Shown here: positions 10,827 through 51,313 of the stretch, piece by piece
How the letters are laid out: every line of letters begins with the position of its first letter
Numbering within the stretch: the stretch's first letter is position 1
NCBI GenBank assembly: GCA_021404905.1
Contig: QWHN01000001.1
Coordinates: forward strand, 130,162-194,161
Length of the DNA stretch: 64,000 nucleotides
Source of the DNA: Candidatus Saccharibacteria bacterium CPR2
Lineage (GTDB): Bacteria; Patescibacteriota; Saccharimonadia; Saccharimonadales; QWHN01
Direction: 5' to 3'
Notes under the pieces: generated by a model
Seen by the model: only the letters and a program-made list of their open reading frames with translations
Told to the model about the DNA's origin: nothing
Database searches by the model: none
Translations under genes and position numbers: made by a program

Positions 10827-11846
10827 TCAGAAAGGCAGTTGAATGACCGGTTGCCACGCTGGATCTGTTTCAGAATAATTCGGATCGTTGGTAAGAAACT
10901 GCATATTCTGACCATTTGCGTCCGCTATGGCTATATCCAGTTGAGCTGTGGAATTTGCTCTCCAGCCAAAAATAACTTTCATCCCGTCAGGCGACCCAGA
11001 CGGTGTGCGAATATGTCCGGTTGTCGGAACCTGCACTCCGTTGTTAACCGCGCCGTCTGGATCAAGCCTATACATCTTTTGATTACTGCCTTCGCGATAC
11101 AAAACTTTTCCAGATACCTCAACTGAAGGCGTGCCTTGATACTTACTGAGGTTAGTAAGTTGTTTTAGGTTTGAAGCTTTTTCGTTTTGCTGGCTGTAAT
11201 CAATTTTATATCTGAAAATATCAAAATTTCCATTTCTGTTTGAAGCAAATACAACATATTGGCCGTCTGGCGTAAAGCTTGCGCAACAATCTTCATAGTA
11301 TTTACCCGAGCCCTTCTTACCTGCGACATATTGAGGACTCGAGCCATCAGAATTCATAACCCAAATATCCAGGTTATTACTTCCTTTTCTCTGATTATAG
11401 ACAATCTTCGTCCCGTCAGGAGAGAACACTGGCCAACGCTCATTGCCTCCATTATCGAGAGCATCAGTTAAGTTTGTAGTTTCGCCGGTTGTTAAATCTT
11501 TAACCCATATATCAAAAGTGCCTGCAACGTTAGAAGCCCACACAATTTTGTTACCATCCGGAGAAAAACTTGGGCTAATATCTGCCTTATTGTTTGGAGC
11601 ATTTACCATTGTCGGAACCGCACCTAATGTTGGTTCTTGGATGAAAACATCAGTTGTGTTTTCCTCCGCGCTCCCACCGTCAAAAATTCCATTTTTGTTA
11701 CTATCAATTCCTTTTGTGTAGGCGATTTTTCCATTTGTAATTGCAGACTCAGCATGTGATTTGGAGCTTTCAAAGTTAAACGCATTAAAAACTAACAAAC
11801 TCATAACTGCCATTAAGACAGCCAAACTCACGAACAGATTCTTCAT
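10827..11846 (-). CDS. Secreted PD40/TolB-like beta-propeller repeat protein
   Basis: N-terminal signal-like helix. Repeated SPSFSPDGNKIVW, WPVFSPDGTKIVY, ASFTPDGQYVVF and SGSPDGMKVIF motifs (WD40-like PD40 repeats). Confidence 0.8.
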   Translation of the reverse strand: MKNLFVSLAVLMAVMSLLVFNAFNFESSKSHAESAITNGKIAYTKGIDSNKNGIFDGGSAEENTTDVFIQEPTLGAVPTMVNAPNNKADISPSFSPDGNKIVWASNVAGTFDIWVKDLTTGETTNLTDALDNGGNERWPVFSPDGTKIVYNQRKGSNNLDIWVMNSDGSSPQYVAGKKGSGKYYEDCCASFTPDGQYVVFASNRNGNFDIFRYKIDYSQQNEKASNLKQLTNLSKYQGTPSVEVSGKVLYREGSNQKMYRLDPDGAVNNGVQVPTTGHIRTPSGSPDGMKVIFGWRANSTAQLDIAIADANGQNMQFLTNDPNYSETDPAWQPVIQLPF

Positions 11847-11925
11847 ACGATTACCCCAAATATTTTAATTCAGTATAATAATATAACTATTAATGACTCT
11901 GGTCAATTTTATGCTAAAGATATTT

Positions 11926-12465
11926 CTAGCTGACAGTGGGTTGGGGTGGTTTAGGAGCCTGGGGAGTCTGAGGTGTATTTGTCATGTTAGAATTTATGGG
12001 AGGTTGATCACCAGATTGTGTTCCAAGTTGATATTTAGCATTTCCAAATCCCAAAATTGCATATCCAATAAAGCTAAATATTGTTAAACCTAAAATACCA
12101 AACACCTCACTTTTACCAAATGCTTTTGCAATATCTATAGAAACTAGGACTATCGCTACCAAATTAACTAATGGGATAAACATCAATAAGAACCAAAGAA
12201 TATCTCTCCCTGATATTTTTACAAGAATATACTGATTATAAATAGGGATAATTGCAGCCCAACCAGGCTGGCCAGCCTTCTCAAATACTTTCCACATTGC
12301 TATAACAGCTACAATGCCGACAGCAAGCCAAAAAAACAGCCAAATACCACTAAAGATTAGTATCCCTCCAATTACGCTATCATCCACACTAACATCACTG
12401 GTGTCCACTCTATATGATGTGTTTGTGTTGACTTGCGCTACCCAATTTAATAATGACATATTCAA
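11926..12465 (-). CDS. Membrane protein (DUF5684-like)
   Basis: 179 aa. PGWAAIIPIYNQYILVKISGRDILWFLLMFIPLVNLV is typical of that family (from memory). Pro/Gln-rich C-terminal tail. Confidence 0.55.
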   Translation of the reverse strand: MNMSLLNWVAQVNTNTSYRVDTSDVSVDDSVIGGILIFSGIWLFFWLAVGIVAVIAMWKVFEKAGQPGWAAIIPIYNQYILVKISGRDILWFLLMFIPLVNLVAIVLVSIDIAKAFGKSEVFGILGLTIFSFIGYAILGFGNAKYQLGTQSGDQPPINSNMTNTPQTPQAPKPPQPTVS

Positions 12466-12540
12466 ACTCCATTAATGCTGTAATTATAACATTATGCTTA
12501 AGGTTTGAATAACCTGTACTTCTATCGTCAAAATTTCACC

Positions 12541-12600
12541 GTTAATCTTTACTGATTCCTAGTTGCTATTTTCTAGTTGCCAATTCCCAGTTCCCGTACC
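12541..12600. repeat. Solo block of the dispersed 7-8-nt word repeat (reverse orientation)
   Basis: The reverse complement of ctgattcctagttgctattttctagttgccaattcccagttcc reads GGAACTGG GAATTGG CAACTAG AAAATAG CAACTAG GAATCAG. The same word family occurs at 59.7-60.0 kb and 63.1/63.6 kb. Confidence 0.6.
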
Positions 12601-12605
12601 GGGCT

Positions 12606-13235
12606 TCAACTAACCGAACTAATTGCCCACGCCAGAAATAAAATCATGCCAGCGATTGCGGATACATCAACGACAACATTCTTCCATTTCGGCAAAAGCT
12701 CAGGATCATGATGCTTTTGATCTATAATCTCATACACCCATAGCCCCGCCAAAGCAAAAATCCCCAGATAAATAACTCCTGCCAGCCAACTTTTAGATAG
12801 AAACAGTATTGATAACGCCATAATCACAATTATTGACTCGAGCGTAATGGCGCTATAAAGACTCAATTTTTGGCTATGAAACAGCCCTAAGTTTTGATCA
12901 AAATCATAATCGGGTTCGTGAACTCCCGGAAGCTCGGAGCGAATTTTAATAGCAATTTTCGACACTAGATGCCCGCCGTTTTCTTTTATTACTTGCATTG
13001 CGTCCTCAATAAATTCGCTTGCTAAAACTTGGTCGCCTCGAGCTTCATGCAAAATTGCCTGGAATTCATACAAGCAAGACTTTTTCGCCGAAGACACCCT
13101 ATGTTTGTTGTGGCTTGCAAATCCATCCAGCCAGGTTTGGTAATCCCTGATTTGTTGCGCGCTAATATCACGACCCATAAATTTAGAGTCAAATTCAATT
13201 AGTTTATCTTCGAGTTGATTATCAACTTCTTTCAT
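12606..13235 (-). CDS. Hypothetical membrane protein (soluble N-terminal domain plus about 3 C-terminal TM helices)
   Basis: 209-aa ORF in the same direction as its neighbours, with hydrophobic C-terminal helices. Confidence 0.55.
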   Translation of the reverse strand: MKEVDNQLEDKLIEFDSKFMGRDISAQQIRDYQTWLDGFASHNKHRVSSAKKSCLYEFQAILHEARGDQVLASEFIEDAMQVIKENGGHLVSKIAIKIRSELPGVHEPDYDFDQNLGLFHSQKLSLYSAITLESIIVIMALSILFLSKSWLAGVIYLGIFALAGLWVYEIIDQKHHDPELLPKWKNVVVDVSAIAGMILFLAWAISSVS

Positions 13236-17994: not shown

Positions 17995-18546
17995 CTATCC
18001 CTTATAGTTGTCAGGCTCTTCGTAATAATACGATTGTTCTATGCCTTTCATAAATACTTCGCGATCATCTATTTTGTCTGTTAATGCCGTACGTAGGAGC
18101 TCACGTAATTCAAGGTCGTTTACTGGGCTACGCTCCATAGCGTTAAAATAGTCATTCTTGTCAATTTTTTGCCAATCCACACATTGTTTTAGATTTTTCT
18201 TTAGAATTAAATCAAGCCAAATTCGTGTACTACGACCATTGCCCTCCATAAATGGGTGGGCAATATTCATCTCGACATACTTTTTGACGATTTCCTCAAA
18301 AGTTGTTTCAGGCATTTTCTCTATCTCAGACAAGCCTTTTCGTAAATAAATAGCAGATGCAAATGTAAAGCCACCTTTGCTAATGTTTTTTGAGCGAATT
18401 TTACCTGCGAACTTATATAATCCACCAAAAAGATATTTGTGAATTTGCTGTAAACCCTTTATTGTACCTACCTCAAAAGACGACAACTCTAGGCTACCAA
18501 AGAGTTTTATAGCTCGCTGTTTACTTATTTCGTCAATGTTTTGCAT
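17995..18546 (-). CDS. fic: Fic-family protein (AMPylase-type), probably class III with a C-terminal inhibitory helix
   Basis: Canonical Fic motif [12 protein letters not shown]. The C-terminal [10 protein letters not shown] fits the S-x-x-x-E inhibitory motif position. Confidence 0.9.
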
Positions 18547-18636
18547 GTCTATATTATAACAGAAAACGATAGAATTAACCCCTGTTAGATTGATCGATCA
18601 ATTCAGGAACCCAATCAGGTTTTTCACGACTCAATC

Positions 18637-18651
18637 TGGCTCCCGGGGCCG
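18637..18651 (-). repeat. Distal att core (displaced 3' end of tRNA-Asn)
   Basis: Exact 15-nt match to 28185-28199 in the same orientation. Identity stops on both sides. Confidence 0.8.
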
Positions 18652-18707
18652 AGACAAAGCACATCTTCAGCCGTGCTCAATGCAAGCATTGGCGCGCGGC
18701 TTTGATG

Positions 18708-18890
18708 ACCGAACCTCCGGTTCGATGTTCAGCTTCGCAGAACTTCAAAAGAAAAACCCAACCACAAGGGTCAGGCGTTTCTTTTGGCTCCCCCTACACT
18801 ACTCAATCAGCAACCTAACTTTGGAATACCAAGTGGATGGTGGCTACCTCAAAGATTTGACCAAACGGTTACGGGGCAGTACCATTTTAC
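18708..18890. repeat. Conserved non-coding left-end module, copy A (about 183 bp)
   Basis: Aligns with 19648-19830. The first 110 nt or so are near-identical (one 1-nt indel, one substitution); the rest is diverged. Contains the hairpins CGAACC-TCC-GGTTCG and CAAAAGAAA...TTTCTTTTG. Confidence 0.75.
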
Positions 18891-19147
18891 CCATATAACT
18901 GTGAATGCGTTCCTATTAGAGAAAAAATTATTACTTCACTGCCCTCTCTATAAAAAAGCGCTCGCAAATCGCCTGAAATATTTATGCTGTAATAGCCCGC
19001 GTACTTACCTCTTAACGGATGGAGTCTTAGGAGAGGATTGGTTTGATCGATCAAAAAAAGCTTTAAACGCTCATCAAATTGACTCTGAATTTTTGTCGGA
19101 AGTTTCTCGTATTGCTGTTTAAATTTTTTATCAAATCTAAGTATCAC
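18887..19147 (-). CDS. relE: Type II toxin, RelE/ParE superfamily
   Basis: 86 aa. LHPLRGKYAGYYSINISGDLRALFYREGSEVIIFSLIGTHSQLY fits the RelE/YafQ-type pattern. GTG start overlaps the antitoxin stop (GTGA). Confidence 0.85.
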   Translation of the reverse strand: MILRFDKKFKQQYEKLPTKIQSQFDERLKLFLIDQTNPLLRLHPLRGKYAGYYSINISGDLRALFYREGSEVIIFSLIGTHSQLYG

Positions 19148-19413
19148 GATTTAAGTTCTTTTAGAAAATCATCAACGTTATCGAAAGGCTTGCTTATCTC
19201 GCCATTTTCTCTGTCTCTTTCTACCTGCTCAATTAAACTTTCAAGCTTAGGTGTCATTTGTTCGGGAGCATATATCTCAATTCGTCTAGTAGCCACAATC
19301 TGCTTTAAGTAACTGTTAACTAAACTACTAAGTGTAATCCCAGCGTCACGTGCAAGCTGTTGAGCAGCTCTCTTAGTTTCGTCATCGGTCTTGATAGTAA
19401 TAACTTTACTCAT
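19144..19413 (-). CDS. relB: Type II antitoxin, RelB/DinJ family
   Basis: MSKVITIKTDDETKRAAQQLARDAGITLSSLVNSYLKQIV is a ribbon-helix-helix N-terminus. The track ORF extends to 19479, but the internal Met at 19413 gives the canonical N-terminus. Confidence 0.8.
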   Translation of the reverse strand: MSKVITIKTDDETKRAAQQLARDAGITLSSLVNSYLKQIVATRRIEIYAPEQMTPKLESLIEQVERDRENGEISKPFDNVDDFLKELKS

Positions 19414-19560
19414 AATACCGAGTATACACAAGGTATTACGTGTGTCAAGGAAAGCATGTATCTTTAATGGCTTCTTCATGACGACTGGTTCCTTGCAAGG
19501 ACGGTCCTTGCAAAACCAATTAACCAGTTTGGATTTGAATGGTAGTTATGTGATTTACGC

Positions 19561-19603
19561 CTCGCTTCATCTCTTGATAGTTATATATGGCACCGAGGCC
19601 GGA
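19561..19603 (+). pseudogene. Remnant of a recombinase 3' end plus a degenerate att-like core (right end of a decayed sibling element)
   Basis: ctcgcttcatctcttgatagttatatatggcaccgaggccgga aligns with 28158-28201, ctcgcttcgtgtcttgatagttctatatggctcccggggccgga. The encoded LASSLDSYIW compares with the recombinase C-terminus LASCLDSSIW. Weaker homology continues about 40 nt further upstream. Confidence 0.65.
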
Positions 19604-19647
19604 TATCGCGTTCACTCTATTCATACTCCTTCCTGCGCTCCTCGTCC

Positions 19648-19830
19648 ACCGAACCTCCGGTTCGATGTTCAGCTTCGCAGAACTTCAAAAGAAAAACCCA
19701 ACCACAAGGGGTCAGGCGTTTCTTTTGGCTCCCCCTACACCACTCAATCAGCAACCTATCTTTAGAGTATCAAGTTGATGGTAATTACCTCAAGGATTTG
19801 GCTAAACGACTAAGGTTACGGGGCAATTTA
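19648..19830. repeat. Conserved non-coding left-end module, copy B
   Basis: Direct repeat of 18708-18890; see that feature. Confidence 0.75.
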
Positions 19831-19860
19831 CTCGCTGGTGCAACTGTTTAGCGGACTAGT

Positions 19861-20130
19861 TTATAGCCCCTTGAACAGTTGTTCTAGCGAAATATCCAGC
19901 GATTTAGCAATCTTAAAGAGCGTTGATAGTGTTGGTTTACGGCGACCTTGCTCAATAAAGCCCATATGTGAGCGGTCAATTCCGCTGTTAGCCGCCAGTT
20001 TTTCTTGGCTCATACCATTAGAATTGCGAGCTTTTACGATACGCTTTCCTAGTTCAGTGTAGATTTGGTCAACAGATGATGCTTTCACATCTTTAGCGTA
20101 TTGATTACAATTGTAAGTAACCACTGACAA
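19861..20130 (-). CDS. XRE/Cro-CI-type HTH transcriptional regulator
   Basis: LGKRIVKARNSNGMSQEKLAANSGIDRSHMGFIEQGRRKPTLSTLFKIAKSLDISLEQLF is a canonical HTH_3 domain. The start is uncertain (TTG at 20130 or GTG at about 20088). Confidence 0.8.
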   Translation of the reverse strand: MSVVTYNCNQYAKDVKASSVDQIYTELGKRIVKARNSNGMSQEKLAANSGIDRSHMGFIEQGRRKPTLSTLFKIAKSLDISLEQLFKGL

Positions 20131-20137
20131 ATGTCAG
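20124..20137. promoter_or_regulatory. Candidate operator: perfect palindrome CTGACA-AA-TGTCAG in the XRE/ltp divergent region
   Basis: Read directly from the sequence. It sits between divergent genes and overlaps the longest XRE start; TATACAAT follows 9 nt downstream. Confidence 0.35.
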
Positions 20138-20171
20138 CAAAAGGTATACAATGTTATCAACTTAATATGTA

Positions 20172-20690
20172 ATGAAAGGTTTTGAAATGGCAGATAAAAA
20201 GCAAGGTAATTGGTTTGGAAGGCATAAAATCTTGACCGTCATTGGTGTAATTGTTCTTTTGGCAATTATCGGCGGTGCTGCTGGCGGCGGTAATACAAAT
20301 ACTTCAACAAGCAGTACGCCAACAAATAGCCAAACTACCCCAACTGCTGAAAGTAAGCCAGCTGCAAAAGAAGAACCTAAAGTACCTGCTGAATATAAAT
20401 CGGCATTAGCCCAAGCTGATACATATGCCAATCAACTACACCTGTCAAAGAAGGGTCTATACGACCAACTGGTTTCAGAGTATGGCGGTAAATTTAAGCC
20501 CGAAGCAGCACAATACGCAGTAGATAATGTTAAAGCTGACTGGAATGCCAACGCACTTGCCCAAGCAAAAACCTATCAAAATGATTTGCACCTATCGCCA
20601 GCTGGTATTCGTGACCAGTTAGTATCTGAACACGGCGGTCAATTTACGGCAGCAGAAGCCGATTACGCTGTTGCACACCTCAACGACTAG
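20172..20690 (+). CDS. Ltp-family surface protein (two Ltp repeats), membrane-anchored; phage-type superinfection-exclusion family
   Basis: TM anchor ILTVIGVIVLLAIIGGAAGGG. Two repeats: AEYKSALAQADTYANQLHLSKKGLYDQLVSEYGGKFKPEAAQYAV and NANALAQAKTYQNDLHLSPAGIRDQLVSEHGGQFTAAEADYAV. No lipobox Cys. The likely start is ATG 20187, preceded by an AAAGG SD. Confidence 0.8.
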   Translation: MKGFEMADKKQGNWFGRHKILTVIGVIVLLAIIGGAAGGGNTNTSTSSTPTNSQTTPTAESKPAAKEEPKVPAEYKSALAQADTYANQLHLSKKGLYDQLVSEYGGKFKPEAAQYAVDNVKADWNANALAQAKTYQNDLHLSPAGIRDQLVSEHGGQFTAAEADYAVAHLND

Positions 20691-20738
20691 GGGGGTAGTC
20701 GCCCTTCTTTTCTGTTATAGGTACTCCGCAGTGTAAAT

Positions 20739-20754
20739 GCCGAATTTTTTCGGC
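20739..20754. terminator. Bidirectional hairpin between convergent genes
   Basis: The palindrome GCCGAATTTTTTCGGC (GCCGAA + TTTT + TTCGGC) is flanked by A/T runs. Confidence 0.5.
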
Positions 20755-20782
20755 TGCAAAAATACCAAGCGTTTTTGGCGGC

Positions 20783-21424
20783 TTAATTTGATTGCTTTTT
20801 AGGCTTAGCTTTCTTTGCTTCTTCAATCAGTTTAGCTTCGCTAATCGCACATCTGTGAATTGGTCCATCGGCGTTTTCTCTATCAAATAGCAAGGACAGG
20901 TAGTGTCTGTCTTTACCGTTAAACCCAAAGATATTGACGATATTGAACCTACCCTCAGAAACTATTTTTGCTAACTCAGCTTCGTGTAAATCACCATCCA
21001 TATTGCAAAAGACGATTAAATGTCTATTTGCGGCATAGTTTTCGCCGTTAGACGATTTATCCTGAACACGGTCGGCAACGGTTTCAAGCAAGGTGTTATG
21101 CTTCTTGTTTCTATGTGTAGCAAGTGTCTGTTCCACATACACTGCTTCGCTTTCGCCCCGAACTAAACCGCCATCATCATTGTCTAGCATTTTGGCAACT
21201 CGCAAACTATCACCAGTCTTGTCCATAAGTGCAATGGCGTGGATGATAAGCCCAATCCATTCCCGTTTGCTCATATTTGTGTCAGTTATCTTGTCGCTAT
21301 CCTCAATCCAGTTTGGGTCATTTAAGCCAGGCAGCACGAACAATTTAAATGCTAGGTATGGGTCAATGGCAATGCCTTGTGCCTTTATGGGTACGCCTTT
21401 GGGTTTCCAAGTGTAGTCAGTCAT
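20783..21424 (-). CDS. Hypothetical protein, last gene of the element cargo operon
   Basis: 213-aa ORF. Its start (ATG 21424-21422) overlaps the stop of the upstream gene by 1 nt. Lys-rich C-terminal tail; no motif recognised. Confidence 0.6.
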   Translation of the reverse strand: MTDYTWKPKGVPIKAQGIAIDPYLAFKLFVLPGLNDPNWIEDSDKITDTNMSKREWIGLIIHAIALMDKTGDSLRVAKMLDNDDGGLVRGESEAVYVEQTLATHRNKKHNTLLETVADRVQDKSSNGENYAANRHLIVFCNMDGDLHEAELAKIVSEGRFNIVNIFGFNGKDRHYLSLLFDRENADGPIHRCAISEAKLIEEAKKAKPKKQSN

Positions 21425-21903
21425 TAGCCAACTTCAAACTCAACTACTGGCAAGCCTGATGATGCCATTTCAGTTTCAATGTGCTGTTGCATATTTTTGG
21501 CATCCTCAAATGATACGCCTCTTGCAGCAGTCCGTTCACGCAACAAATCATCGCCAATTTTCAAATGTACGATACGGTCAGCGTCTAATACCACTGTACC
21601 GAAGACAGGTTCGCCAGGTTTTACTTTGACCCGCTCTTTGGTCAATCGTGTCATAGTTTCACCAATTTCAGGTGTCCACGGTGTTTGGCAAACATAGTCG
21701 GCTTCGTCTTTGGTCAGTAGCGGAAACACCAGTTTGTCCATATCCTTAGCGTCAGCAAGATGTTCAATCAGTGTACTTTTGCCAGTGCAAGTACCGCCAA
21801 GCACCACAACTCGCTCGTCTTTGTACTGGTCTAAAACTGATTGAAGCTCGGCTGCCTGTCGCTGTTTTGCAACTTCTAACGACTGCTCACGCTCTGACAT
21901 CAC
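21424..21903 (-). CDS. Small P-loop NTPase / kinase-like protein
   Basis: Walker A motif VVVLGGTCTGKSTL. At 159 aa it has the size and layout of small nucleotide/nucleoside-kinase-like P-loop proteins. Confidence 0.65.
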   Translation of the reverse strand: MMSEREQSLEVAKQRQAAELQSVLDQYKDERVVVLGGTCTGKSTLIEHLADAKDMDKLVFPLLTKDEADYVCQTPWTPEIGETMTRLTKERVKVKPGEPVFGTVVLDADRIVHLKIGDDLLRERTAARGVSFEDAKNMQQHIETEMASSGLPVVEFEVG

Positions 21904-22663
21904 TTAATCTCTCAATGTATTCGGAAAATCCATCCTCAGTTACTAAGCCAATAACTTCGTTGGAAGCGGCTTTTAGTTCATCCACGGCGTTACCCATCGC
22001 CACTTTATGCTTTACCGCATTGAACAAATGAATATCGTTATGACCGTCACCAACACCAATAGTATCTTCTTGTTTGATTTTTAGTATTTTGAGTAGCTCG
22101 GCAATAGCGTGTTCTTTCGTGGCGTTACGATTTGTAACGTGAATATCATTAAAGCCAGCTCGTTGAGCAACAACCAAAGTAACCGCAACGCCGTCTATTT
22201 TTGATAGCTCAGCTACAATTTGGGGTGCAATCTCTTGTGGCACGAATATCAGTTCAAAGAAATATACTGGTTCGGTAATTTGTAAGTTAGCTACATCAAG
22301 ACCACCATTAAGGTAAGCGTCCTCATCGTTATCGTTATAAAGCACCTTATATTTTGGGTATTTTTTTGCAATGGCTAACGTAGCTGCTAGGTCAGCTTCG
22401 TCTATGTCACACTGCCACATAATTTCACCTGTTACTGGATTGCAAATCTGTGTTCCAGCCGAGATGATACAAGGGTCAACCAGCGACAAACCTTTTAATA
22501 CTGGCTCAGCAAATGTCCACACTCTGCCAGTAGCAGCACAGGCATAGTAGTCTTCCTCTAACTTGCGAATAGCTTGAACTAACCGCTCACTCGGCACTTT
22601 TTGTGAAGGTGAATTGATAGCAGTACCATCAATATCAAAAATCAGTGCTTTGTATTTTCTCAC
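21887..22663 (-). CDS. Cof-type HAD-IIB phosphatase
   Basis: Motif I FDIDGTAI, a cap-domain-sized insert, and motif IV GVGDGHNDIHLF. Confidence 0.85.
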   Translation of the reverse strand: MRKYKALIFDIDGTAINSPSQKVPSERLVQAIRKLEEDYYACAATGRVWTFAEPVLKGLSLVDPCIISAGTQICNPVTGEIMWQCDIDEADLAATLAIAKKYPKYKVLYNDNDEDAYLNGGLDVANLQITEPVYFFELIFVPQEIAPQIVAELSKIDGVAVTLVVAQRAGFNDIHVTNRNATKEHAIAELLKILKIKQEDTIGVGDGHNDIHLFNAVKHKVAMGNAVDELKAASNEVIGLVTEDGFSEYIERLSDVRA

Positions 22664-23115
22664 TTTCCTGCCTCAAAAATCTTTGCCTGAATAGCTTTGA
22701 GCTGTTCAGCTGACATTTGTGGACCTTCGGCTGTCGTAATATAGCCTTTATATTCTTCGGTAAATTCAGTATGGTCAGACCAAACATCGGTTTTGGCTGC
22801 TAACTCGCCGTGAAGCGGTATCAGTTTTGCGTGAACATAAGCAACGCCTGTGCCTTCAAACACCAAAGCAACCCTTGGCACACCCAGTGCTTCTTCAAGT
22901 ATCCTTGCTACATTCTTTGCTGCCAGCATCAAGTCTGAGTAGGCTTTATCGTCTAGGGTAAAAATATAGTCGCCGATGTTGGTTTTAGGTATTAGAACGG
23001 TAAATCCTGGCGTATTTGGAAATGGCGTTAAAAATGCCAGGTGCTTATCATCTTCCCAGACTTTGTAGCTATCCATTTCACCACGAACAATTTTGTCAAA
23101 AATAGTGTCACTCAT
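22660..23115 (-). CDS. HIT-like domain protein with a degenerate histidine triad
   Basis: The N-terminal IFDKIVRGEMDSYKVWEDDKHLAFL...GFTVLIPK matches the HIT fold. The triad position reads YVHAKLIPL instead of H-x-H-x-H-x-x. Confidence 0.65.
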   Translation of the reverse strand: MSDTIFDKIVRGEMDSYKVWEDDKHLAFLTPFPNTPGFTVLIPKTNIGDYIFTLDDKAYSDLMLAAKNVARILEEALGVPRVALVFEGTGVAYVHAKLIPLHGELAAKTDVWSDHTEFTEEYKGYITTAEGPQMSAEQLKAIQAKIFEAGK

Positions 23116-23501
23116 TACGCTAAGTTCTCGTCTAAGAATTGTTTTAGTGCGTTCATATCTTCTTTCGTGTGGTCATAGAAATATGTGGTAATACCAACCG
23201 ACTGAGCAGTCTTAGCCGCTTCTGCATTGTGTTCAAAATAGACAACATCTTCTGCTTTAAGTCCATATTTTTCAAGAAGTATTTTGAAGTATAGCGGGTC
23301 AGTCTTTTCAGGGTCGTGTTTAAGCGTAAATACCTCATACGGCACTTGGTCTAGCTTGAAATGTTTAAATTGCTCGTCGTTTGCACTCGTTAAAACCAAC
23401 TTTTTATTAGGGTAACCTTCTAACAGCTTGTGCATCGGTTCAAGGATGCTGCCATCTTCTAACACCAATCCATTTATAGCGTCTACTAAAATCGTTTTCA
23501 T
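23115..23501 (-). CDS. Small HAD-like protein (motif I D-x-I instead of D-x-D)
   Basis: 128 aa. The N-terminal ILVDAINGLV sits at the position of HAD motif I, and VVYFEHNAEAAKTAQSVGI resembles the motif III/IV region. First gene of the 5-gene operon. Confidence 0.5.
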   Translation of the reverse strand: MKTILVDAINGLVLEDGSILEPMHKLLEGYPNKKLVLTSANDEQFKHFKLDQVPYEVFTLKHDPEKTDPLYFKILLEKYGLKAEDVVYFEHNAEAAKTAQSVGITTYFYDHTKEDMNALKQFLDENLA

Positions 23502-23518
23502 TACTTCTTCACTCCTTC

Positions 23519-23701
23519 CTATTTGTGTTCCATAAATTTCACTAAATCTTCACGCTTGTATCGGCGTAAACCACGCTCGCCAATTCGCACTGCTCTCAAA
23601 ATACCTTTCTTGTCCCAGGCACGAAGTGTGTTGGGATGGACTTTTAGCAGCTCGCTGGCTTGCTTTAGGGTTAGTAATTCTTGCAATGGTTCTTGTGACA
23701 T
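23519..23701 (-). CDS. Excisionase/MerR-type HTH DNA-binding protein (candidate recombination directionality factor)
   Basis: 60 aa. LLTLKQASELLKVHPNTLRAWDKKGILRAVRIGERGLRRYKREDL is an HTH_17-type pattern. Confidence 0.75.
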   Translation of the reverse strand: MSQEPLQELLTLKQASELLKVHPNTLRAWDKKGILRAVRIGERGLRRYKREDLVKFMEHK

Positions 23702-23762
23702 ATTTACTCACTCTTGATAACATTATTATACAGCCATAAAGATGTAGTGAAAGTAGTAAAAG

Positions 23763-24788
23763 GTGTTACACGGCGAAGAAAAAATCTGGTTTCTGGTAAA
23801 TACGCTTGATAAAGAGCGTAAGGTCACGCCCAAGGGCAAGCCCGTGGCATTGCACCCAATGAATGACCTAAACAATCACTACTCCAAATTGGATTTTATT
23901 GACCTGTTTGAAACGCTTGAACAAGACAAAGTCGCCAAGTTACTTAACCAGCTACCGACTGACCAAACCTACGGCAAGTACCAAATCCAGCTATTACCAG
24001 GATTTGATGGCTATGTTGAAAAGCTAGAAGAAAACCCAGAATATCTTGAATGGTCAGGCAAAAAGCCCAAACCTAAAAACTACTTTAGCCCAGAACGGCG
24101 TGTTGACTTTTCTAAGCCCAAAGAAGAAAACAAGGATAAGTACATATCGGTTGGTCAGATTGAAGAATTGATGAAAATGCCCAAGGATGAACGGGCAAAG
24201 ATTGAAAAGAATAGCCTGACCCAAGAACACCTTAACGACATTACAGAGTTTCAAGATGGTTTGGCAAAAGCCAGCAAAGCACTTAAACAAAAGATGGATG
24301 CAGCAGTTAAAGACCTAGTACCTAAAATTAACTTCCCCGATGTTATGAAAACCGACCACATAGCCATAACTCCACCACCAAACTATCAGGCACAATCCGT
24401 CGGGCTTTTAAAGCAGCTTGTTGAGCAGCAAAAGCAGCAAGACAAGCAGGATAATAAAGCTGTGCTAAAAATAACCTACACCAGCTCACGCCAGGTTATG
24501 TTGAACGGCGTATTTCAACTTGCAAGACCATCCCTCAATGGTACAAATGACCTTGTTTTCAACCATCTGTACCAAAACCCAGGCAAGTCATTTTCCAAGC
24601 AGCAGTTAGAAGCAGCTATCGGACAAAAAATTAGCAAGACCCTACATAAGATAGTTGAAAACCTTGGCTTTAAAGGTGATTTAGCCAAAGCCTTCTTTTC
24701 GGTATCAAAAAATAACATTGTATTTAGAAACCCGATTACCCGTGATGAACTAAACGATATGGGCTTGGGCAATATAAAGTTAAGCTGA
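23763..24788 (+). CDS. Hypothetical protein (GTG start); Lys/Gln-rich centre, possible C-terminal winged helix
   Basis: 341-aa ORF divergent from the Xis-like gene; no motif recognised. Confidence 0.6.
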   Translation: MLHGEEKIWFLVNTLDKERKVTPKGKPVALHPMNDLNNHYSKLDFIDLFETLEQDKVAKLLNQLPTDQTYGKYQIQLLPGFDGYVEKLEENPEYLEWSGKKPKPKNYFSPERRVDFSKPKEENKDKYISVGQIEELMKMPKDERAKIEKNSLTQEHLNDITEFQDGLAKASKALKQKMDAAVKDLVPKINFPDVMKTDHIAITPPPNYQAQSVGLLKQLVEQQKQQDKQDNKAVLKITYTSSRQVMLNGVFQLARPSLNGTNDLVFNHLYQNPGKSFSKQQLEAAIGQKISKTLHKIVENLGFKGDLAKAFFSVSKNNIVFRNPITRDELNDMGLGNIKLS

Positions 24789-24860
24789 TAACCATTCCCA
24801 AATGTTCCCATCTTTGCCCGCTCAGGCGAGCAATTGCTTCTATTTAGTTAAGTTGGCTGT

Positions 24861-25031
24861 ATGGATAAGCAGCCACCAAGTAGCACAGCAAAAGCCAGCC
24901 AAGAAAAACCTTGGTCTGATGCTGAACTGCGGCGTGTTGCCCGTGTGTTTGACTTGCTCATAAGGATAGACCAGCGTAAACGAGGAAAAGGTAATGAAGA
25001 AAAACCAGTCAGCAAGCCCAAAACTAGTTAA
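24861..25031 (+). CDS. Possible 56-aa ORF (below the ORF-track cutoff)
   Basis: My translation is MDKQPPSSTAKASQEKPWSDAELRRVARVFDLLIRIDQRKRGKGNEEKPVSKPKTS. It overlaps the next ORF by 38 nt, so only one of the two starts may be real. Confidence 0.25.
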   Translation: MDKQPPSSTAKASQEKPWSDAELRRVARVFDLLIRIDQRKRGKGNEEKPVSKPKTS

Positions 25032-25269
25032 GAAGTGCAACGACTGTAAGTTAATTGAAGCAAAAGCTATCATCTGGAATAACGAAGCTGAAACGCTCAG
25101 CAAAATTATAGACGAAATACAAGGCTTTATGCCGACCTACGGTATTGATGTAAAACTTATCAACCGAATTAAGGAAAGCTGTGAAGAATTGCTTGAAGAA
25201 AGATTGAACTTTCTAGATGGCTACTTAGATTTTTGGCAGGAATGTACTGATGAGCATCACCGAAATTAA
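24994..25269 (+). CDS. Hypothetical small protein
   Basis: 91-aa ORF with an AGGAAAAGG SD upstream. Overlaps the next gene by 20 nt. Confidence 0.45.
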   Translation: MKKNQSASPKLVKKCNDCKLIEAKAIIWNNEAETLSKIIDEIQGFMPTYGIDVKLINRIKESCEELLEERLNFLDGYLDFWQECTDEHHRN

Positions 25270-25549
25270 CATTACGGCCGTCAAGCCAAAAGACGGGCTT
25301 GTTGGCTTTGCCAGCTTCGTGTTTGCTGGTGCGTTGTACTGCGGCTCTGTCGGCATATTTAGCCGTCCTAGCGGCGGTTATAGGCTCGTATACCCTACCA
25401 AGCTAGTTGCAGGTCGTCAGCTAGATGTGTACCACCCAATAACGGGTGCTGTCGGCAGACAGATTGAAGAAGCTGTAATAACTAAATTTGAAGAAGTAAT
25501 GAACAATGCTCGGAATAGACACAGTAGTGCTGAACTTTTATCCCAATGA
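25250..25549 (+). CDS. SpoVG-like protein
   Basis: ITEINITAVKPKDGLVGFASFVFAGALYCGSVGIFSRPSGGYRLVYPTK...YHPIT parallels the SpoVG N-terminal pattern (..KLKAFASVT.D..F.V.DI.V..G..G.FVAMPSRK...HPI). Confidence 0.65.
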   Translation: MSITEINITAVKPKDGLVGFASFVFAGALYCGSVGIFSRPSGGYRLVYPTKLVAGRQLDVYHPITGAVGRQIEEAVITKFEEVMNNARNRHSSAELLSQ

Positions 25550-26660
25550 GTTTGCCATATTGCGACCTTGGGATTTTACGCCCAACACAAACCGCATTAC
25601 GGCTATTGAGCCGAAGGATTTGGGAAAAGGACGCTATATGCAAGCAACACGCAACCCAAACAAGCAAGAAACAGCCCAGACAGGTTATCTACCGTACCTG
25701 ACCTTTTATAAAGGCATACGGGCTGGCGGCGTTACCACGGGCTTGCGAGTGCAGTTTTCTGTGCCAAAGCTGATTTACGGCAATAACTTTGATGAACTGG
25801 TTGAAGCTGACCTAGACCAAGTCTATGAGCGGCTGTTTGAAGGTTTAAAGTTCTATGGCGTACGGTTCTTCAAGGGCATAGAAACGGTCAAAAATGCCAA
25901 GGTAGCCACAATCCACTTCGCCAAGAACTTTCCGCTCAGTAACTATATGACCGCTCACGAAGCGATTACCGAAATACAGAAGTGCGATGTGACGACCTGG
26001 CGTGATGTAAGCCAAAGCGATTATGTGAACAATGGACACGGCTTTAAGACGCACTCCAAGCACTACGAGCTGGCTTTTTACGACAAGATAGCCGAGTACC
26101 ACAAAGGCAAACGCAACCAGCCTGTGTTTGATACAGACTTGCAGTTGCAGATGGATTTGTTTGGCAACAATCAAATTGTTCAGCCTTTTGAAGTGCTTCG
26201 TATGGAAGCTCGTCTAAATAACCAAAGAATTATCAAATCAACACTCAAAAAGGCTGGCTTTGAAGGTGCAGAAGTTACGCTTGCGGCACTCTGCAAAAAG
26301 GATATTTCACAAGCCGTCTTGAAGCAGCAGCTTGCCGAGCTATATTCACGCTACCCAAAAATCAGCGATGCCAAAGCACCTGATTTACACGCCCTATTTA
26401 GCCAGCTGTATGTTCAAAATCCAGGTCGCAATATGACCACACTACTTTCGGCTGTCGGGTTACGAGCCTTAAATCAAGAACACGGCACACGAAGGCTTAA
26501 AGACATAGTTGGTCCACGGGGCAGCCCAGCACTGCTCCGCCAAGCCAAAAAGATAAACCACGAATTAGCTTACAGGTTTGAGCAACCAGAGGTATTTCAA
26601 ATGCTAGATGAGCAGCTGGATAGGTTCTTGCCCGTTAAGTTAGCTAACTTCGTAAATTGA
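25506..26660 (+). CDS. Putative replication initiation protein (phage/plasmid gene II/X or CRI-like); function uncertain
   Basis: 384-aa ORF. The N-terminus MLGIDTVVLNFYP.. resembles the MIDxLxLxxP start of rolling-circle/filamentous-phage initiators. It sits in an operon with the SpoVG-like gene directly upstream of the recombinase. Confidence 0.4.
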   Translation: MLGIDTVVLNFYPNEFAILRPWDFTPNTNRITAIEPKDLGKGRYMQATRNPNKQETAQTGYLPYLTFYKGIRAGGVTTGLRVQFSVPKLIYGNNFDELVEADLDQVYERLFEGLKFYGVRFFKGIETVKNAKVATIHFAKNFPLSNYMTAHEAITEIQKCDVTTWRDVSQSDYVNNGHGFKTHSKHYELAFYDKIAEYHKGKRNQPVFDTDLQLQMDLFGNNQIVQPFEVLRMEARLNNQRIIKSTLKKAGFEGAEVTLAALCKKDISQAVLKQQLAELYSRYPKISDAKAPDLHALFSQLYVQNPGRNMTTLLSAVGLRALNQEHGTRRLKDIVGPRGSPALLRQAKKINHELAYRFEQPEVFQMLDEQLDRFLPVKLANFVN

Positions 26661-26693
26661 TGACAAATGTAAGTTATAATAGGAGTAAATACT

Positions 26694-28226
26694 ATGAAAA
26701 AAGCCGTAATACTAGCAAGAGTATCAACTAAGAAACAAGAGCAAGAAGGCTTATCGCTGGAAGAAATTCAGCTCCCAGCAATGCGTGAATACGCTGAGCT
26801 ACACGACTTTGAAATTGTAAAGGAATATGTGTTTAGCGAAAGTGCTGATATGGGCATACGCAAGAAGTTCAACGAAATGATGGACTATGTAAAAAAGCAC
26901 AAAGACATTGAAGCCATTATAGCGTTTCGTGTTGACCGAGCTACCCGCAACTTTGCCGACCACGTTGCTATGGATAACCTGCGGACCGAGTACAACAAGG
27001 AATTACATTTTGTTCACGATAGGCTAACTATAACTGCTCGCTCGGTTGGGCGTGATATTACCGACTGGGACACTAAAGTATACCTAGCCAAACAAATCAT
27101 AAATCGTCTTAAAGAAGATGCCCATAACTCACGCTACGCCAAGCTGCGTGATGGCGAGCTGCCAGGTATTGCACCGTATGGCTATAAGAACGAAGCGATT
27201 GATAAACGCAACAAAACTGTTGTGCCTGTGCCCTTCAAAGCCAATATCGCCCTCAAAACATTTGAGCTGTACGCTACTGGTACATTTTCGTACAAATCCT
27301 TAGCCAAACGAATGAAGACTGACTACGGTGTTGATATGCCTTGGAGCAGCTTCGGCACGATACTCAAAAATCGCTTCTACATTGGCGAGATTTACGATAA
27401 GGCTACGGACAACTACTATCAGCATCACTACGAACAATTCGTGCCATACGAGCTGTTTTGGCAGGTTCAGGATGTAATTGCTGGTCACGGCAAGAAAAAG
27501 ATTAAGTACAAAGGTTTGCCGTTTACTTACCGTGGCTTGCTGCACTGTAAAAAATGCGGCTGTGCCATCACGCCCGAAGCCAAGCACAAGAAACAGAAGA
27601 ACGGTAACAAGCACAGCTACGCCTATTACCACTGCACGGGCAAAAGCAAAGCCTACGGCAAACACAAGGACACTGAATGGCTTGAAGAAAAGGAACTGGA
27701 TGGCATACTCGCCCAGCTGTTTGACGACTGCAAAATACCAGAAAACGAATTACCACGCCTTGAACAAATACTAAAGGAAGCCCACGGCGGCAAGGTTGTA
27801 TTCAATAAAGAACAGGTTAAATATCACAATACCGAAATTTCAAAGCTACAAAATCGGATTGAAGTAGCCTATGAGGATAAGTGCGATGGTAGTATTACCC
27901 AAGCAGAATATGACAAGAAGCGTTCTAAATGGCGTCAGCAGCAGAAGCTACACGAACGCAAATTGGCACGGCTCTCGGAAGTTGATGAACAATACTATGT
28001 TACGGTTGCCTATCTGTTAGAAATAGCTGCCCGTGGTAGCGAGCTATTTATAGCTGCTGAACCAAACGAAAAGCGAGAGTTAATTGGTTTGCTTGGTCAG
28101 AACCTGCTTTTGGATGGTAAATCCGTGCAAATAACCCTTTACAAACCGTTTGATACTCTCGCTTCGTGTCTTGATAGTTCTATATGGCTCCCGGGGCCGG
28201 ACTCGAACCGGCAACCTCGAAGTTAA
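26694..28226 (+). CDS. Large serine recombinase (resolvase catalytic domain, recombinase domain, zinc ribbon, coiled coil)
   Basis: AVILARVSTKKQ holds the catalytic Ser. AFRVDRATRN is present. Zinc ribbon CKKCGCAITPE...YYHCTG. AGGAG SD upstream. The last 14 codons run antisense through the att core and tRNA-Asn. Confidence 0.93.
   Translation: MKKAVILARVSTKKQEQEGLSLEEIQLPAMREYAELHDFEIVKEYVFSESADMGIRKKFNEMMDYVKKHKDIEAIIAFRVDRATRNFADHVAMDNLRTEYNKELHFVHDRLTITARSVGRDITDWDTKVYLAKQIINRLKEDAHNSRYAKLRDGELPGIAPYGYKNEAIDKRNKTVVPVPFKANIALKTFELYATGTFSYKSLAKRMKTDYGVDMPWSSFGTILKNRFYIGEIYDKATDNYYQHHYEQFVPYELFWQVQDVIAGHGKKKIKYKGLPFTYRGLLHCKKCGCAITPEAKHKKQKNGNKHSYAYYHCTGKSKAYGKHKDTEWLEEKELDGILAQLFDDCKIPENELPRLEQILKEAHGGKVVFNKEQVKYHNTEISKLQNRIEVAYEDKCDGSITQAEYDKKRSKWRQQQKLHERKLARLSEVDEQYYVTVAYLLEIAARGSELFIAAEPNEKRELIGLLGQNLLLDGKSVQITLYKPFDTLASCLDSSIWLPGPDSNRQPRS
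28185..28199 (-). repeat. Proximal att core (3' end of the intact tRNA-Asn)
   Basis: Identical to 18637-18651. Confidence 0.8.
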
Positions 28227-28259
28227 CAGCTTCTTGCTCCACCATTGAGCTACCCGGGA
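28185..28259 (-). tRNA. tRNA-Asn (GUU), CCA encoded
   Basis: Manual fold of TCCCGGGTAGCTCAATGGTGGAGCAAGAAGCTGTTAACTTCGAGGTTGCCGGTTCGAGTCCGGCCCCGGGAGCCA. It has a 7-bp acceptor stem with U1-A72 and G73, D stem GCTC/GAGC, anticodon loop CU-GUU-AA and T arm GCCGG-TTCGAGT-CCGGC. There is one A27:G43 mismatch. Confidence 0.92.
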
Positions 28260-49588: not shown

Positions 49589-51313
49589 ATGTTTAAGCGT
49601 TTTCACTACCTGATTGCAGCTTTGATAGTAAACATAGCGCTGTTTGTTTCCTTCACACAAGTCAACGCAGTTTCAGGCAGTGAATTTCAAGCTGGTCGAA
49701 TTATAGATGATAGCAAGTTTTTTAGCGGACCTACTATGTCTGTAAATGACATTCAGCTTTTCTTAAATGCGAAAGTGCCCGTATGTGACACGTGGGGCAC
49801 TCAGCCATATGCGGGCACAACTAGAGCAGCATACGCGGCGAGCCGTGGTGTATCAACACCTTTTATTTGTCTAAAAGACTATCACATGAGTATACCCTAT
49901 AAGGCACCTGAATCCGGGCTTTGTAACGGCATAACCGCGTCCGGAGCATTCGCTTCTGAAGTGATTTCTTGGGTAGCTCAAAGTTGCGGTATAAACCCAC
50001 AAGTATTGATAGTTCTTCTTCAAAAAGAACAGTCACTAATAACTGATGACTGGCCATGGCCAATACAATACCGTAGTGCTACGGGATACGGTTGCCCAGA
50101 TGGTGCTCCGTGTGACGAAGAATATTACGGTTTTTTCAACCAAGTTTATAATGCTGCCAGGCAATTCAAACGATATGGTAGAGATTCTTACTTATTTAAT
50201 TATCATGCAAACGCGAATAATTATATTCAATACAACCCAAACGCTGGATGTGGTGGATCAGTAGTGTATATACAAAATCAAGCAACCGCAGGTCTTTATA
50301 ATTACACGCCCTACCAACCAAATGCTGCGGCATTAAACAACTTATATGGTACGGGTGATGGCTGTAGCGCCTATGGTAATCGTAACTTCTGGCGTATTTT
50401 TAACGATTGGTTTGGCAGTACATTTGGTCCTCCAGATTACTCTTGTAAAAACAGTGTTAATGTAAGTGGAGCATCAACCGGTGAAAAAGTCATTCCAAAC
50501 CAATTTAATCATTCAGGTTACGCGACTTTTTCTCTAGTTCTTCCCAATAATACTGGCTCGGCATGTATGGAAGCACATACTTGGCATCCTAACCTACAAT
50601 CGTGGATTACGAATGTTGCCACAAATCACCCCTCTGTAAACCCGGCAGATGGCGAAGTAGTATCTGCTAATGTGCATGGCAGTACAAAATCTGAGCTCAA
50701 CTTCATCAAATACCGCAACACTGGCAGTGGACGCATTGAAATACACACGTGGGACGATTCATATCAAAGATGGGTTTACAATATTGCCACAAATCATCCG
50801 GCTATTGATCCCGCAGACGGTGAAGTAATTGCTGGAGATATGACGGGCGACGGACGTGACGAATTAATCTTCATCAAATACCGCAACACTGGCAGTGGAC
50901 GCATTGAAATACACACGTGGACGCCAGATAAACAAGGTTGGATTTCCAATGTTGCTACTAATTTACCGGCTATTGATCCCGCAGACGGACGAGTCATAGC
51001 AGCCAATCTTTATGGCGATAATCGTGACGAATTAATCTTCATCAAATACCGCAACACTGGCAGTGGACGCATTGAAATACACACGTGGGCTCCTGGTCAA
51101 CAAACATGGCTCAGCAATGTTGCGACTAATCATACAACGGTGAGTACCGATGATAATGAAGTTATATCTGCCAATATATTCGACAATGAAGCCGATGAAT
51201 TAATCTTCATCAAATACCGCAACACTGGCAGTGGACGCATTGAAATACACACGTGGGCTCCTGGTCAACAAACATGGCTCATGAATGCAGTTACAAACAT
51301 GAGTAGCTTTTAA
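49589..51313 (+). CDS. Secreted protein: N-terminal putative cell-wall/glycan-binding or hydrolase-like domain plus five FG-GAP/propeller-like 56-aa repeats
   Basis: Signal-like N-terminus. INPQVLIVLLQKEQSLITD resembles lysin/glucosaminidase-associated segments (weak). The C-terminal repeats end in ELIFIKYRNTGSGRIEIHTW. Confidence 0.7.
   Translation: MFKRFHYLIAALIVNIALFVSFTQVNAVSGSEFQAGRIIDDSKFFSGPTMSVNDIQLFLNAKVPVCDTWGTQPYAGTTRAAYAASRGVSTPFICLKDYHMSIPYKAPESGLCNGITASGAFASEVISWVAQSCGINPQVLIVLLQKEQSLITDDWPWPIQYRSATGYGCPDGAPCDEEYYGFFNQVYNAARQFKRYGRDSYLFNYHANANNYIQYNPNAGCGGSVVYIQNQATAGLYNYTPYQPNAAALNNLYGTGDGCSAYGNRNFWRIFNDWFGSTFGPPDYSCKNSVNVSGASTGEKVIPNQFNHSGYATFSLVLPNNTGSACMEAHTWHPNLQSWITNVATNHPSVNPADGEVVSANVHGSTKSELNFIKYRNTGSGRIEIHTWDDSYQRWVYNIATNHPAIDPADGEVIAGDMTGDGRDELIFIKYRNTGSGRIEIHTWTPDKQGWISNVATNLPAIDPADGRVIAANLYGDNRDELIFIKYRNTGSGRIEIHTWAPGQQTWLSNVATNHTTVSTDDNEVISANIFDNEADELIFIKYRNTGSGRIEIHTWAPGQQTWLMNAVTNMSSF
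50701..51280 (+). repeat. Intragenic tandem repeat, period exactly 168 nt, with an identical 52-nt core in four copies
   Basis: CTTCATCAAATACCGCAACACTGGCAGTGGACGCATTGAAATACACACGTGG occurs at 50701, 50869, 51037 and 51205. Copies 3 and 4 additionally share GCTCCTGGTCAACAAACATGGCTC. Confidence 0.9.

Follow-up and report, generated by a model that had tools for sequence, protein, structure and literature searches.

A duplicated 183-bp repeat beside a Saccharibacteria tRNA-Asn gene is probably the attL junction of two tandem serine recombinase elements

Organization of the locus

We analyzed a window of 64,000 nucleotides from Candidatus Saccharibacteria bacterium CPR2 (GenBank assembly GCA_021404905.1, contig QWHN01000001.1, positions 130,162 to 194,161), in which a sequence of 183 bp occurs twice in direct orientation, on one side of a mobile element whose other end lies in a tRNA-Asn gene. 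An earlier note on this DNA had described the 183 bp as a conserved non-coding module at the left end of each of two elements, possibly a non-coding RNA (ncRNA), a replication origin, or a recombination site. Comparison with related loci suggests a different reading: the repeat is probably a composite attL junction of two tandem large serine recombinase (LSR) elements at the tRNA gene's 3' end, with the recombinase tail of an element as its right part and chromosomal flank as its left part.

The two copies (A, 18708-18890; B, 19648-19830, in window coordinates) are indeed direct repeats and are near-identical up to about nucleotide 110. They show 100% identity over the first 63 nt, after which copy B has one extra G (GGG becoming GGGG at 18768-70), and the remainder, in which a 6-nt indel occurs (ACTAAG in B), is around 81% identical. 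On its left, the repeat has a sharp edge, at ACCGAACC, and the DNA upstream of the two copies is unrelated. No further sequence resembling the repeat was found anywhere in the window. All the hairpins named in the earlier note are present, among them CGAACC-TCC-GGTTCG (18710-18724), GTTC..GAAC (18727-18743), and a stem CAAAAGAAA/TTTCTTTTG (18746-18786) that encloses ACCC..GGGT. Each copy contains the motif TGGCTCC, the att core, which separates a left part, called T' hereafter, from the right part.

The core, as TGGCTCC(C), is found at 18785, 19726, and 28185, and the last two positions mark the ends of E2, an intact integrated element of ~8.5 kb (19726..28192, plus strand). At its left end, E2 has the attL core, the P' half-site, and an intact tail open reading frame (ORF), WLPLHHSISNLSLEYQVDGNYLKDLAKRLRLRGNLLAGATV* (19726..19851, plus strand), which is in phase with the recombinase across attP. 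Its genes encode HTH_3, Ltp lipoprotein, AAA_28, HAD, HIT, HTH_17/MerR, SpoVG-like, and Phage_CRI Rep (25506-26660) proteins, followed by the recombinase. The HTH_17/MerR protein is small (60 aa, 23519-23701, minus strand) and is a candidate recombination directionality factor. The recombinase itself, 510 aa long in its integrated form (26694..28226, plus strand), has the Pfam domains Resolvase (PF00239), Recombinase (PF07508), and Zn_ribbon_recom (PF13408), and matches the A118 and TP901-1 integrases in the PDB. The 3' end of its gene overlaps the minus-strand tRNA-Asn(GTT) gene, the attB target (28185..28259). The terminal W-L-P-G-P-D-S-N-R-Q-P-R-S of the protein is the tRNA 3' end read antisense: TGG, which codes for the W, is complementary to the tRNA CCA, and the last 11 residues (GPDSNRQPRS after W-L-P) are encoded antisense to the tRNA, so that the protein ends in …WLPGPDSNRQPRS.

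The other element, E1 (18785-19587), begins with the attL core TGG-CT-CC, a P' half-site, and a decayed recombinase tail ORF of 37 codons (18785..18898, plus strand). Its remaining genes are a RelBE toxin-antitoxin pair only, namely a RelE/YafQ-ParE toxin (18887-19147, minus strand) and a RelB antitoxin (19144-19479, minus strand), and it ends with a remnant of a recombinase 3' end (…LASSLDSYIW, ~19558..19587, plus strand).

To the left of each element lies what we call a Y unit, composed of a 15-18-nt tRNA-Asn 3' fragment whose end falls in the T-loop, of a hairpin spacer X that varies between units, and of T'. In Y_A, the fragment (18637..18651, minus strand) forms the outer edge of the unit and is 15/15 identical to 28185-28199, i.e., to the first part of the overlap between recombinase and tRNA genes (TGGCTCCCGGGGCCG, at 18637 and 28185); the identity ends in the T-loop. 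It is followed by X_A (18652..18707), which is GC-rich, can form a long imperfect hairpin, and is unrelated to X_B, and by T'_A (18708..18784, minus strand). In Y_B, the fragment (TGGCACCGAGGCCGGAT, 19588..19604, minus strand) has 17 nt and is degenerate, with CA for CT in the core and one nucleotide deleted, and the tRNA it most resembles is the tRNA-Asn variant of other Saccharibacteria. X_B (19605..19647) is similar to the spacers of both Y units of a related locus, L001, and precedes T'_B (19648..19725, minus strand). The fragments are thus 56 nt (A) and 43 nt (B) ahead of the repeat copies. The exact 15-nt fragment at 18637 and the degenerate 17-nt fragment at 19588, in direct orientation and with a full tRNA at the far end, form the signature of integration in a tRNA gene (tDNA).

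The boundary of the elements falls inside the repeat

We compared 26 homologous element ends found on 25 contigs. Nine related loci were retrieved via the recombinase, all in metagenome-assembled genomes (MAGs) of Saccharibacteria, and the gene abuts tRNA-Asn in eight of them. Scanning metagenomes for the first 26 nt of the element end yielded 20 additional left ends. Where a related locus extends to the far end, it is similar to the window from exactly 18784/5 and 19725/6 onward, at TGGCTCCCC. The 20 metagenomic ends have the identical boundary and unrelated left flanks. The TGGCTCC at this boundary (18785, 19726) is the complement of the tRNA-Asn CCA end. One locus, L047, is particularly informative: its left end is identical to that of E2, including the 87-aa HTH product and the tail DNA, but it has another flank (ATGAATGCCTGATCGTTTTTATT|TGGCTCC). 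Since homology starts at TGGCTCC and the flank of L047 differs, only the diverged right part of the repeat is element DNA. T' (18708-18784 and 19648-19725) lies outside the element boundary, is absent from the related elements, and would therefore not be in the excised circle. The repeat is duplicated because two LSR elements are in tandem, each having its attL beside one copy of T'.

The att site can be reconstructed from these ends. The resulting attP, TTGATAGTTCTATATGG-CT-CCCCCTACACCACTCAA, has 10 of 17 symmetric positions by inspection, a weak dyad around TGG-CT-CC, and the crossover dinucleotide is probably the CT. The P' half-site, i.e., the first ~30 nt of the right part, resembles the tRNA arm (…ACTCAATCAGCAACCT vs …ACTCGAACCGGCAACCT). 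The fragment between E1 and Y_B (19588-19594) has the core TGG-CA-CC in place of TGG-CT-CC, with one G gone. If CT is the crossover, this junction would be unable to recombine with the other cores, and the E1 remnant would be locked.

Public assemblies show the tRNA-Asn locus of this species in at least three states: empty, occupied by E2, or occupied by another LSR element. It is empty in L010, which belongs to the same species (98% identity on the tRNA side) and where the tRNA is followed by a different hairpin and T-run trailer (GAAATTTTGCAACAGAGGTAGACCTGGTTCCTAGACCAGGTCTTTC, within 10351-10500 of L010). E2 occupies it in the window, L014, and L015, and the other LSR element is found in L011-L013, with ApeA/HEPN, a short-chain dehydrogenase, and a cupin among its cargo. 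A further locus, L007, has a 1.4-kb island (11483-13001) between an LSR element and the intact tRNA, carrying a toxin-antitoxin-like pair and a metallophosphatase and bounded by direct repeats, each consisting of 26 nt from the tRNA-Asn 3' end. The longer identity block and the lack of a remaining integrase imply that a different class of element uses the same tRNA. In the window, a Fic/DOC-family gene (17995-18546, minus strand) lies directly beyond the outermost tRNA fragment, and the end of a Fic-like gene also adjoins the element of L034. As the DNA left of 18637 is not common to the empty site of L010, further islands may lie leftward.

The right part of the repeat continues the recombinase reading frame

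From the TGG of the core onward, the right part of the repeat holds a frame of 37-41 codons in phase with the recombinase, which reads …SSIW-LP in the gene and WLP… at the element end. The six copies first compared follow the pattern WLPLH.SISNL.LEYQVD..YL.DLA.RL… and mostly end in …LLAGATV*; the same pattern is found in 19 of the 20 metagenomic copies. Among 22 distinct homologs, the TGG frame is open in all, with 0 stops, against 30-103 stops in every other frame on both strands. Over nt 28-93, the ratio of nonsynonymous to synonymous changes (pN/pS) is 0.29 in this frame, to be compared with 1.37 and 1.52 in the other two, and third positions hold 25.5 of the 46 bits of column entropy (permutation p < 5e-5). 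These last two measures exclude the first 26 nt, which were fixed by the search pattern. The position of the stop codon is conserved (…GATV*). The frame of the right part is shown to be continuous and under purifying selection.

The earlier note had ruled out coding because the 6-7-nt indel would shift every frame. In fact, this indel has 6 nt, is in frame, and adds Leu-Arg; as the frame starts only at TGG (18785/19726), it is not affected by the 1-nt indel, which is located upstream, in T', and coding remains compatible with both indels. Since there is no conserved start codon inside the tail, its translation must enter across the core. When the circular junction is reconstructed, the frame is continuous across attP in 22/22 element ends, and in-frame fusions between a recombinase C-terminus and this tail occur in L008, L036, and P0025. 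In the circular element, the frame of the right part would thus continue the recombinase gene, placing attP inside the 3' end of this gene. Integration would then swap the native tail (…WLPLHHSISNL…LLAGATV) for the 11 residues encoded antisense to the tRNA. The swap would make the C-terminus of the recombinase dependent on the state of integration, as in Mx8 IntP. The native tail may be a degron-like nonpolar end (A-T/A/S-V) or a regulatory helix.

It is very unlikely that the tail frame is not part of the recombinase, being either an untranslated extended attP arm or accessory site, or an independent small gene. As a half-site would, the first ~30 nt of the tail show almost no variation and resemble a tRNA. 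However, LSR att half-sites span ~25 bp, not 120, and past nt 28 the variation is mostly in third positions, with the low pN/pS confined to a single frame and a stop at a conserved position. As for a small gene, an ATG at 18725 opens a 57-aa ORF in copy A, and ORFs running from flank to tail have been called in P0032, P0156, and P0157. This ATG lies in T', which other elements lack, and copy B is frameshifted relative to it; moreover, the N-termini of the flank ORFs are unrelated and no start codon is conserved within the tail. Pfam has no family for the 57-aa and 101-aa ORFs of the repeat.

We also searched the right part for RNA structure. The hairpin GATGGT..ACCTC has 0 compensatory pairs across the homologs, with pairing equal to the shuffle mean, and RNAalifold gave no consensus structure in this part. 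Together with the boundary, these results bear on the idea that all 183 bp form a non-coding module carried by the element (ncRNA, rolling-circle double-strand or single-strand origin, or accessory site) lying in the excised circle beside the recombinase and Rep genes. This idea can draw on hairpins that are real, on the high GC content and low folding energy (z ~ -2.7 for Y_A on both strands), on the five compensatory pairs with which the T' hairpins are kept in the second Y unit of L001 (L001_Y2, see below), and on the Phage_CRI-type Rep gene of E2. Yet, the element boundary is inside the repeat, the flank of L047 differs, and the near-identical left 78 nt are absent from related elements. 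The right 114-126 nt are covered by in-frame recombinase coding (22/22, pN/pS 0.29) and lack structure-preserving covariation, and Rfam gave no match to an RNA family for the module. An origin would fare no better, with T' outside the replicating element and the tail region coding. By the refuting conditions that the earlier note itself set out, its main reading fails, and we consider such a module extremely improbable. The recombination site that the note offered as one option is essentially correct, with the attL core and P' half-site of a large serine recombinase falling mid-repeat.

The left part of the repeat and the Y units

The left part is best read as a terminator and tRNA-derived sequence on the chromosomal side. 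A terminator scan found hairpins on the minus strand at 18776->18756 and 19717->19696, each followed by TTTTCTTTTG. The structure with the 9-bp stem described in the earlier note corresponds, on this strand (that of the tRNA sense), to a terminator-like hairpin followed by TTTTTCTTTT, directly after the core, and G·U pairs lengthen its stem on the minus strand only. With their T runs, these features extend over 18776->18746 in T'_A and 19717->19687 in T'_B, and in T'_A they are followed by two tRNA-Asn-like hairpins (GAAGCTG..AAC..GGTTCGGTCAT). T'_B (78 nt) matches T'_A (77 nt) at every aligned position and has the one extra G. The predicted terminators lie downstream of relE and of the HTH gene, on the same strand as these genes, a position from which they would stop the leftward transcripts of the elements (RelBE, HTH) in the integrated state.

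Y units are 148 and 138 nt long in the window and 98-178 nt at L001, L004, L031, L035, and L039. They occur at 7 of the 26 element ends (6/25 contigs; five genomes including that of the window) and are homologous pairwise. Inside, they are similar to tRNA-Asn over a stretch that runs from the D or anticodon arm to a variant T-loop, TTCGGTCAT, which is common to the window, L031, and L035; the similarity has p ~0.002 in L031 and L035, and p ~0.06 in the window. The tRNA-like stretch of T' (18727-18743 and 19667-19683, minus strand) reads GAAGCTG--AACATCGA, vs GAAGCTGTTAACTTCGA in the tRNA (28259-28185). This pseudo-tRNA lacks exactly the anticodon positions T35 and T36, in an alignment that is marginal and may be a coincidence. 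In patescibacterial tRNA-Asn genes, group I introns insert at position 35/36 (PMC13011429).

A profile search revealed a second Y unit in L001 (1874-1986), which is ~70% identical to T' and collinear with it up to TGGCTC. An unrelated insert of 640 bp is present at its core, giving a layout Y-insert-Y-insert as in the window. This unit keeps all three hairpins of T', with 94.9% of cells paired vs 27-51% when the sequences are slid, and five pairs are changed on both sides. Four of the five are in the terminator, and only two independent lineages are involved. The earlier view of the repeat as a structured unit thus holds for the hairpins of the left part, as kept in one diverged relative, and fails for the unstructured right part. 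Rfam gave only tRNAs and chance matches (ctRNA_p42d, E=2), in the window at the gathering threshold and in 18300-20200 plus four Y loci at permissive E-values. ARAGORN found no tRNA or tmRNA in the module. Exact-pattern scans for T' covered two sets, viral contigs (searched with a 25-mer) and JGI metagenomes (searched with a 24-mer), and returned no match in either.

Could T' or the Y unit have a function of its own? It might be a tRNA-derived landing pad with a terminator, a small (cis-)mobilizable unit, or a structured RNA with a tRNA-like 3' end. The homologous family has a conserved layout at the 7 of 26 ends, comes in tandem pairs with an insert at each core in the window and in L001, and is present in L039 and absent from L028 and L044, which have a homologous flank. 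The hairpins are conserved with compensatory changes, and Y is GC-rich within an AT-rich genome. In addition, the recombinase remnant of E1 is joined to fragment B, as expected if the core of the fragment served as attB. On the other hand, the conservation of the hairpins comes from two independent lineages with most compensatory pairs in the terminator, the X parts are not conserved, and no promoter, Rfam family, or copy away from tRNA-Asn was found in 476 kb of loci. The pattern of presence and absence is also explicable by deletion between direct repeats of 8-17 nt. We regard a function of this kind as unlikely.

Other identities of T' and X were rejected. A fragment of tmRNA, SRP RNA, or RNase P had no model match, and the native tRNA-Asn trailer of the species is excluded by the different trailer at the empty site of L010. 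A recombinase reading through Y_B was also considered. Copy B has this frame open, but copy A and L001 have stops in it and in L004 the phase differs; hence, its openness in copy B is due to chance.

Some junctions are irregular. In L001, the recombinase end is joined to non-tRNA DNA (TGGCTC|ACCACGATAG, 11490-11510), there is no tRNA-Asn in the 21-kb locus, and the older Y unit is followed by TGGCTC|AGCATAGTGG (1981-1990). These junctions may stem from rearrangement between cores, from a secondary site, or from a MAG contig that is chimeric. In L035, the host flank just past Y has a sub-threshold match to a cobalamin riboswitch (934-1148, plus strand; 26.4 bits vs a gathering threshold of 31.5, E=0.007). 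Two other repeat families of the window, four tandem copies of a 168-nt unit that are 69-79% identical (50597-51297) and a family spaced by ~150 nt (1520-3568), are probably repeat domains of large proteins and unrelated to the 183-bp repeat.

Possible history of the array and points against it

With the repeat read as a composite attL, the layout Y_A-E1-Y_B-E2-tRNA could have arisen by successive events. In the history with the best support, the Y units would be scars of earlier events at a tRNA hot spot, and first E1 and next E2 would have used the T'-core junctions of Y_A and Y_B as their attB, or pseudo-attB. E1 would later have decayed to its addiction module. Alternatively, E1 could have been excised together with Y_B via the core of the fragment and have re-entered by homologous recombination in T'.

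Several observations weigh against our interpretation or fit it poorly. T'_A and T'_B match at all aligned positions while X_A and X_B are unrelated, and their homology breaks exactly in the pseudo T-loop. Neither of these facts is explained, by the array of scars or by excision and re-entry of E1 with Y_B, and our interpretation does not account for X. The tRNA similarity of T' in the window is marginal (p ~0.06), and T' may have a role beyond transcription termination, given that its hairpins are conserved with compensatory changes. The dyad of attP and its central dinucleotide were read off the sequence. Concerning the tail, its first ~30 nt are constrained as DNA by their role as an att half-site, the first 26 nt having been fixed by the search pattern. 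The fusions in L008, L036, and P0025 are tandem remnants of a diverged paralogue. The junction of a recombinase with its own cognate tail was not found in assemblies or protein databases, where the matches were such remnants and flank ORFs; hence, translation of the tail rests on its evolutionary signature.

A family of recombinases with tRNA-encoded ends

Among the 120 best homologs of the recombinase, which come from Saccharibacteria, other Patescibacteria, and Chloroflexota, at least 46 end in W-L-x-x-x-D-S-N… by a strict pattern, and around 60 do so by eye. The extended signature W-L-x-x-x-D-S-N-x-x-P is the tRNA T-arm and T-loop read antisense, with an invariant W codon that is the complement of CCA. 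Another group of homologs has longer, native-looking tails with a loosely shared pattern, W-L-x-L-x-D-x-F/I-R…. It thus looks as if the whole family integrates at the CCA ends of tRNAs and has attP within its own gene. No relatives of the recombinase were found in IMG/VR. The signature could allow the automatic detection of serine integrases that target tRNA genes.

One may speculate further, although we give the full proposal a rather modest chance of being right. A widespread LSR family in Saccharibacteria, other Patescibacteria, and Chloroflexota would target tRNA CCA ends with attP in its own 3' coding end; the native tail of ~38 aa would be made from the free or tandem form only, and the tail encoded by the tRNA when integrated. 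Stability or directionality would then be under a built-in switch that responds to the state of integration, and the family would be the first among serine integrases to parallel Mx8 IntP and integration-dependent immunity. The Y units, in turn, may be reusable landing pads on which tandem arrays are built.

The analysis fixes where the small integrative elements of a family in Saccharibacteria truly begin and end, and what their att core is; mobile elements of these organisms have hardly been described. Enzymes having a conserved tRNA 3'-end attB and a detachable tail could be useful for genome engineering with LSRs. Finally, the new ncRNA or origin module was not upheld, which spares the effort of covariance-model searches.

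Comparison with known systems

Our literature search found no paper describing these elements of Saccharibacteria. In their domains (Resolvase, Recombinase, and Zn-ribbon) and short core identity, they are like the elements of A118/LI, Bxb1, phiC31, and TP901-1, and it can be presumed that their att sites are small and have a 2-bp crossover. To our knowledge, the integrase ORF runs through attP in none of these classic LSR systems. Concerning the target, PMC4383910 describes serine integrases as "not known to target tRNA genes". A survey that came afterwards listed 14 of 297 predicted cases, "not reported previously" and in need of proof (PMC7192596). Against these two surveys, the present locus and its relatives document serine integrases targeting a tRNA gene.

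The array is like tDNA islands and the accretion of cis-mobilizable elements and integrative and conjugative elements (CIME-ICE), with a full tRNA and displaced 3' fragments in direct orientation, tandem elements, and decayed remnants. Unlike the tDNA islands of Islander, it involves a serine recombinase and a core of 8 nt, and the fragments of 15-18 nt belong to tiny Y units (140-180 nt) devoid of integrase. The hairpin of T' is like the Rho-independent terminator of a tRNA gene, having a GC-containing stem and TTTTTCTTTT right after the CCA end on the tRNA-sense strand, and analogous hairpins follow CCA in the empty site and in other flanks. Unlike an ordinary tRNA terminator, it is separated from the tRNA by the inserted elements and, in the window, follows genes of the elements.

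The closest parallels to the recombinase gene come from tyrosine integrases. Mx8 targets the 3' end of a tRNA gene, and its integration exchanges more than 100 C-terminal residues of the integrase. The attP of Mx8 lies inside the gene of this integrase, IntP, and integration makes a recombinant gene with a new C-terminus, whose product in the prophage is active but altered (PMC4383910, PMC6070905). Like Mx8, E2 has its attP within the 3' part of its own integrase gene and its integration would change the C-terminus. Unlike Mx8, it uses a serine recombinase and ~38 residues change; a functional consequence is demonstrated for Mx8 and putative for E2. In the archaeal SSV-type integrases, the recombination site is within the integrase ORF and integration rearranges the gene (PMC7253208). 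These are tyrosine enzymes whose gene is split into two inactive parts, unlike the recombinase of E2, which retains all of its catalytic and DNA-binding domains and exchanges no more than a short tail. In the mycobacteriophages BPs and Brujita, integration leads to the loss of a C-terminal tag, and Int itself is tagged (PMC9262239). As in these phages, the attP of E2 is in a coding gene overlapping a tRNA 3' end, and the tails end in the nonpolar A-T/A/S-V. In BPs and Brujita, however, it is the repressor gene that crosses attP and the integrase is a tyrosine recombinase; the degron role of the tails described here is hypothetical. Since the gene of E2 runs through attP, the C-terminus of its product would depend on the state of integration, a situation with known regulatory consequences in Mx8 and the mycobacteriophages. 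The arrangement of the E2 recombinase is hence analogous to the Mx8 and SSV type without being a member of it, its chemistry being that of serine and not tyrosine recombinases. A serine recombinase counterpart of an integrase gene spanning attP is moderately new, the known examples, Mx8 and SSV, being tyrosine integrases.

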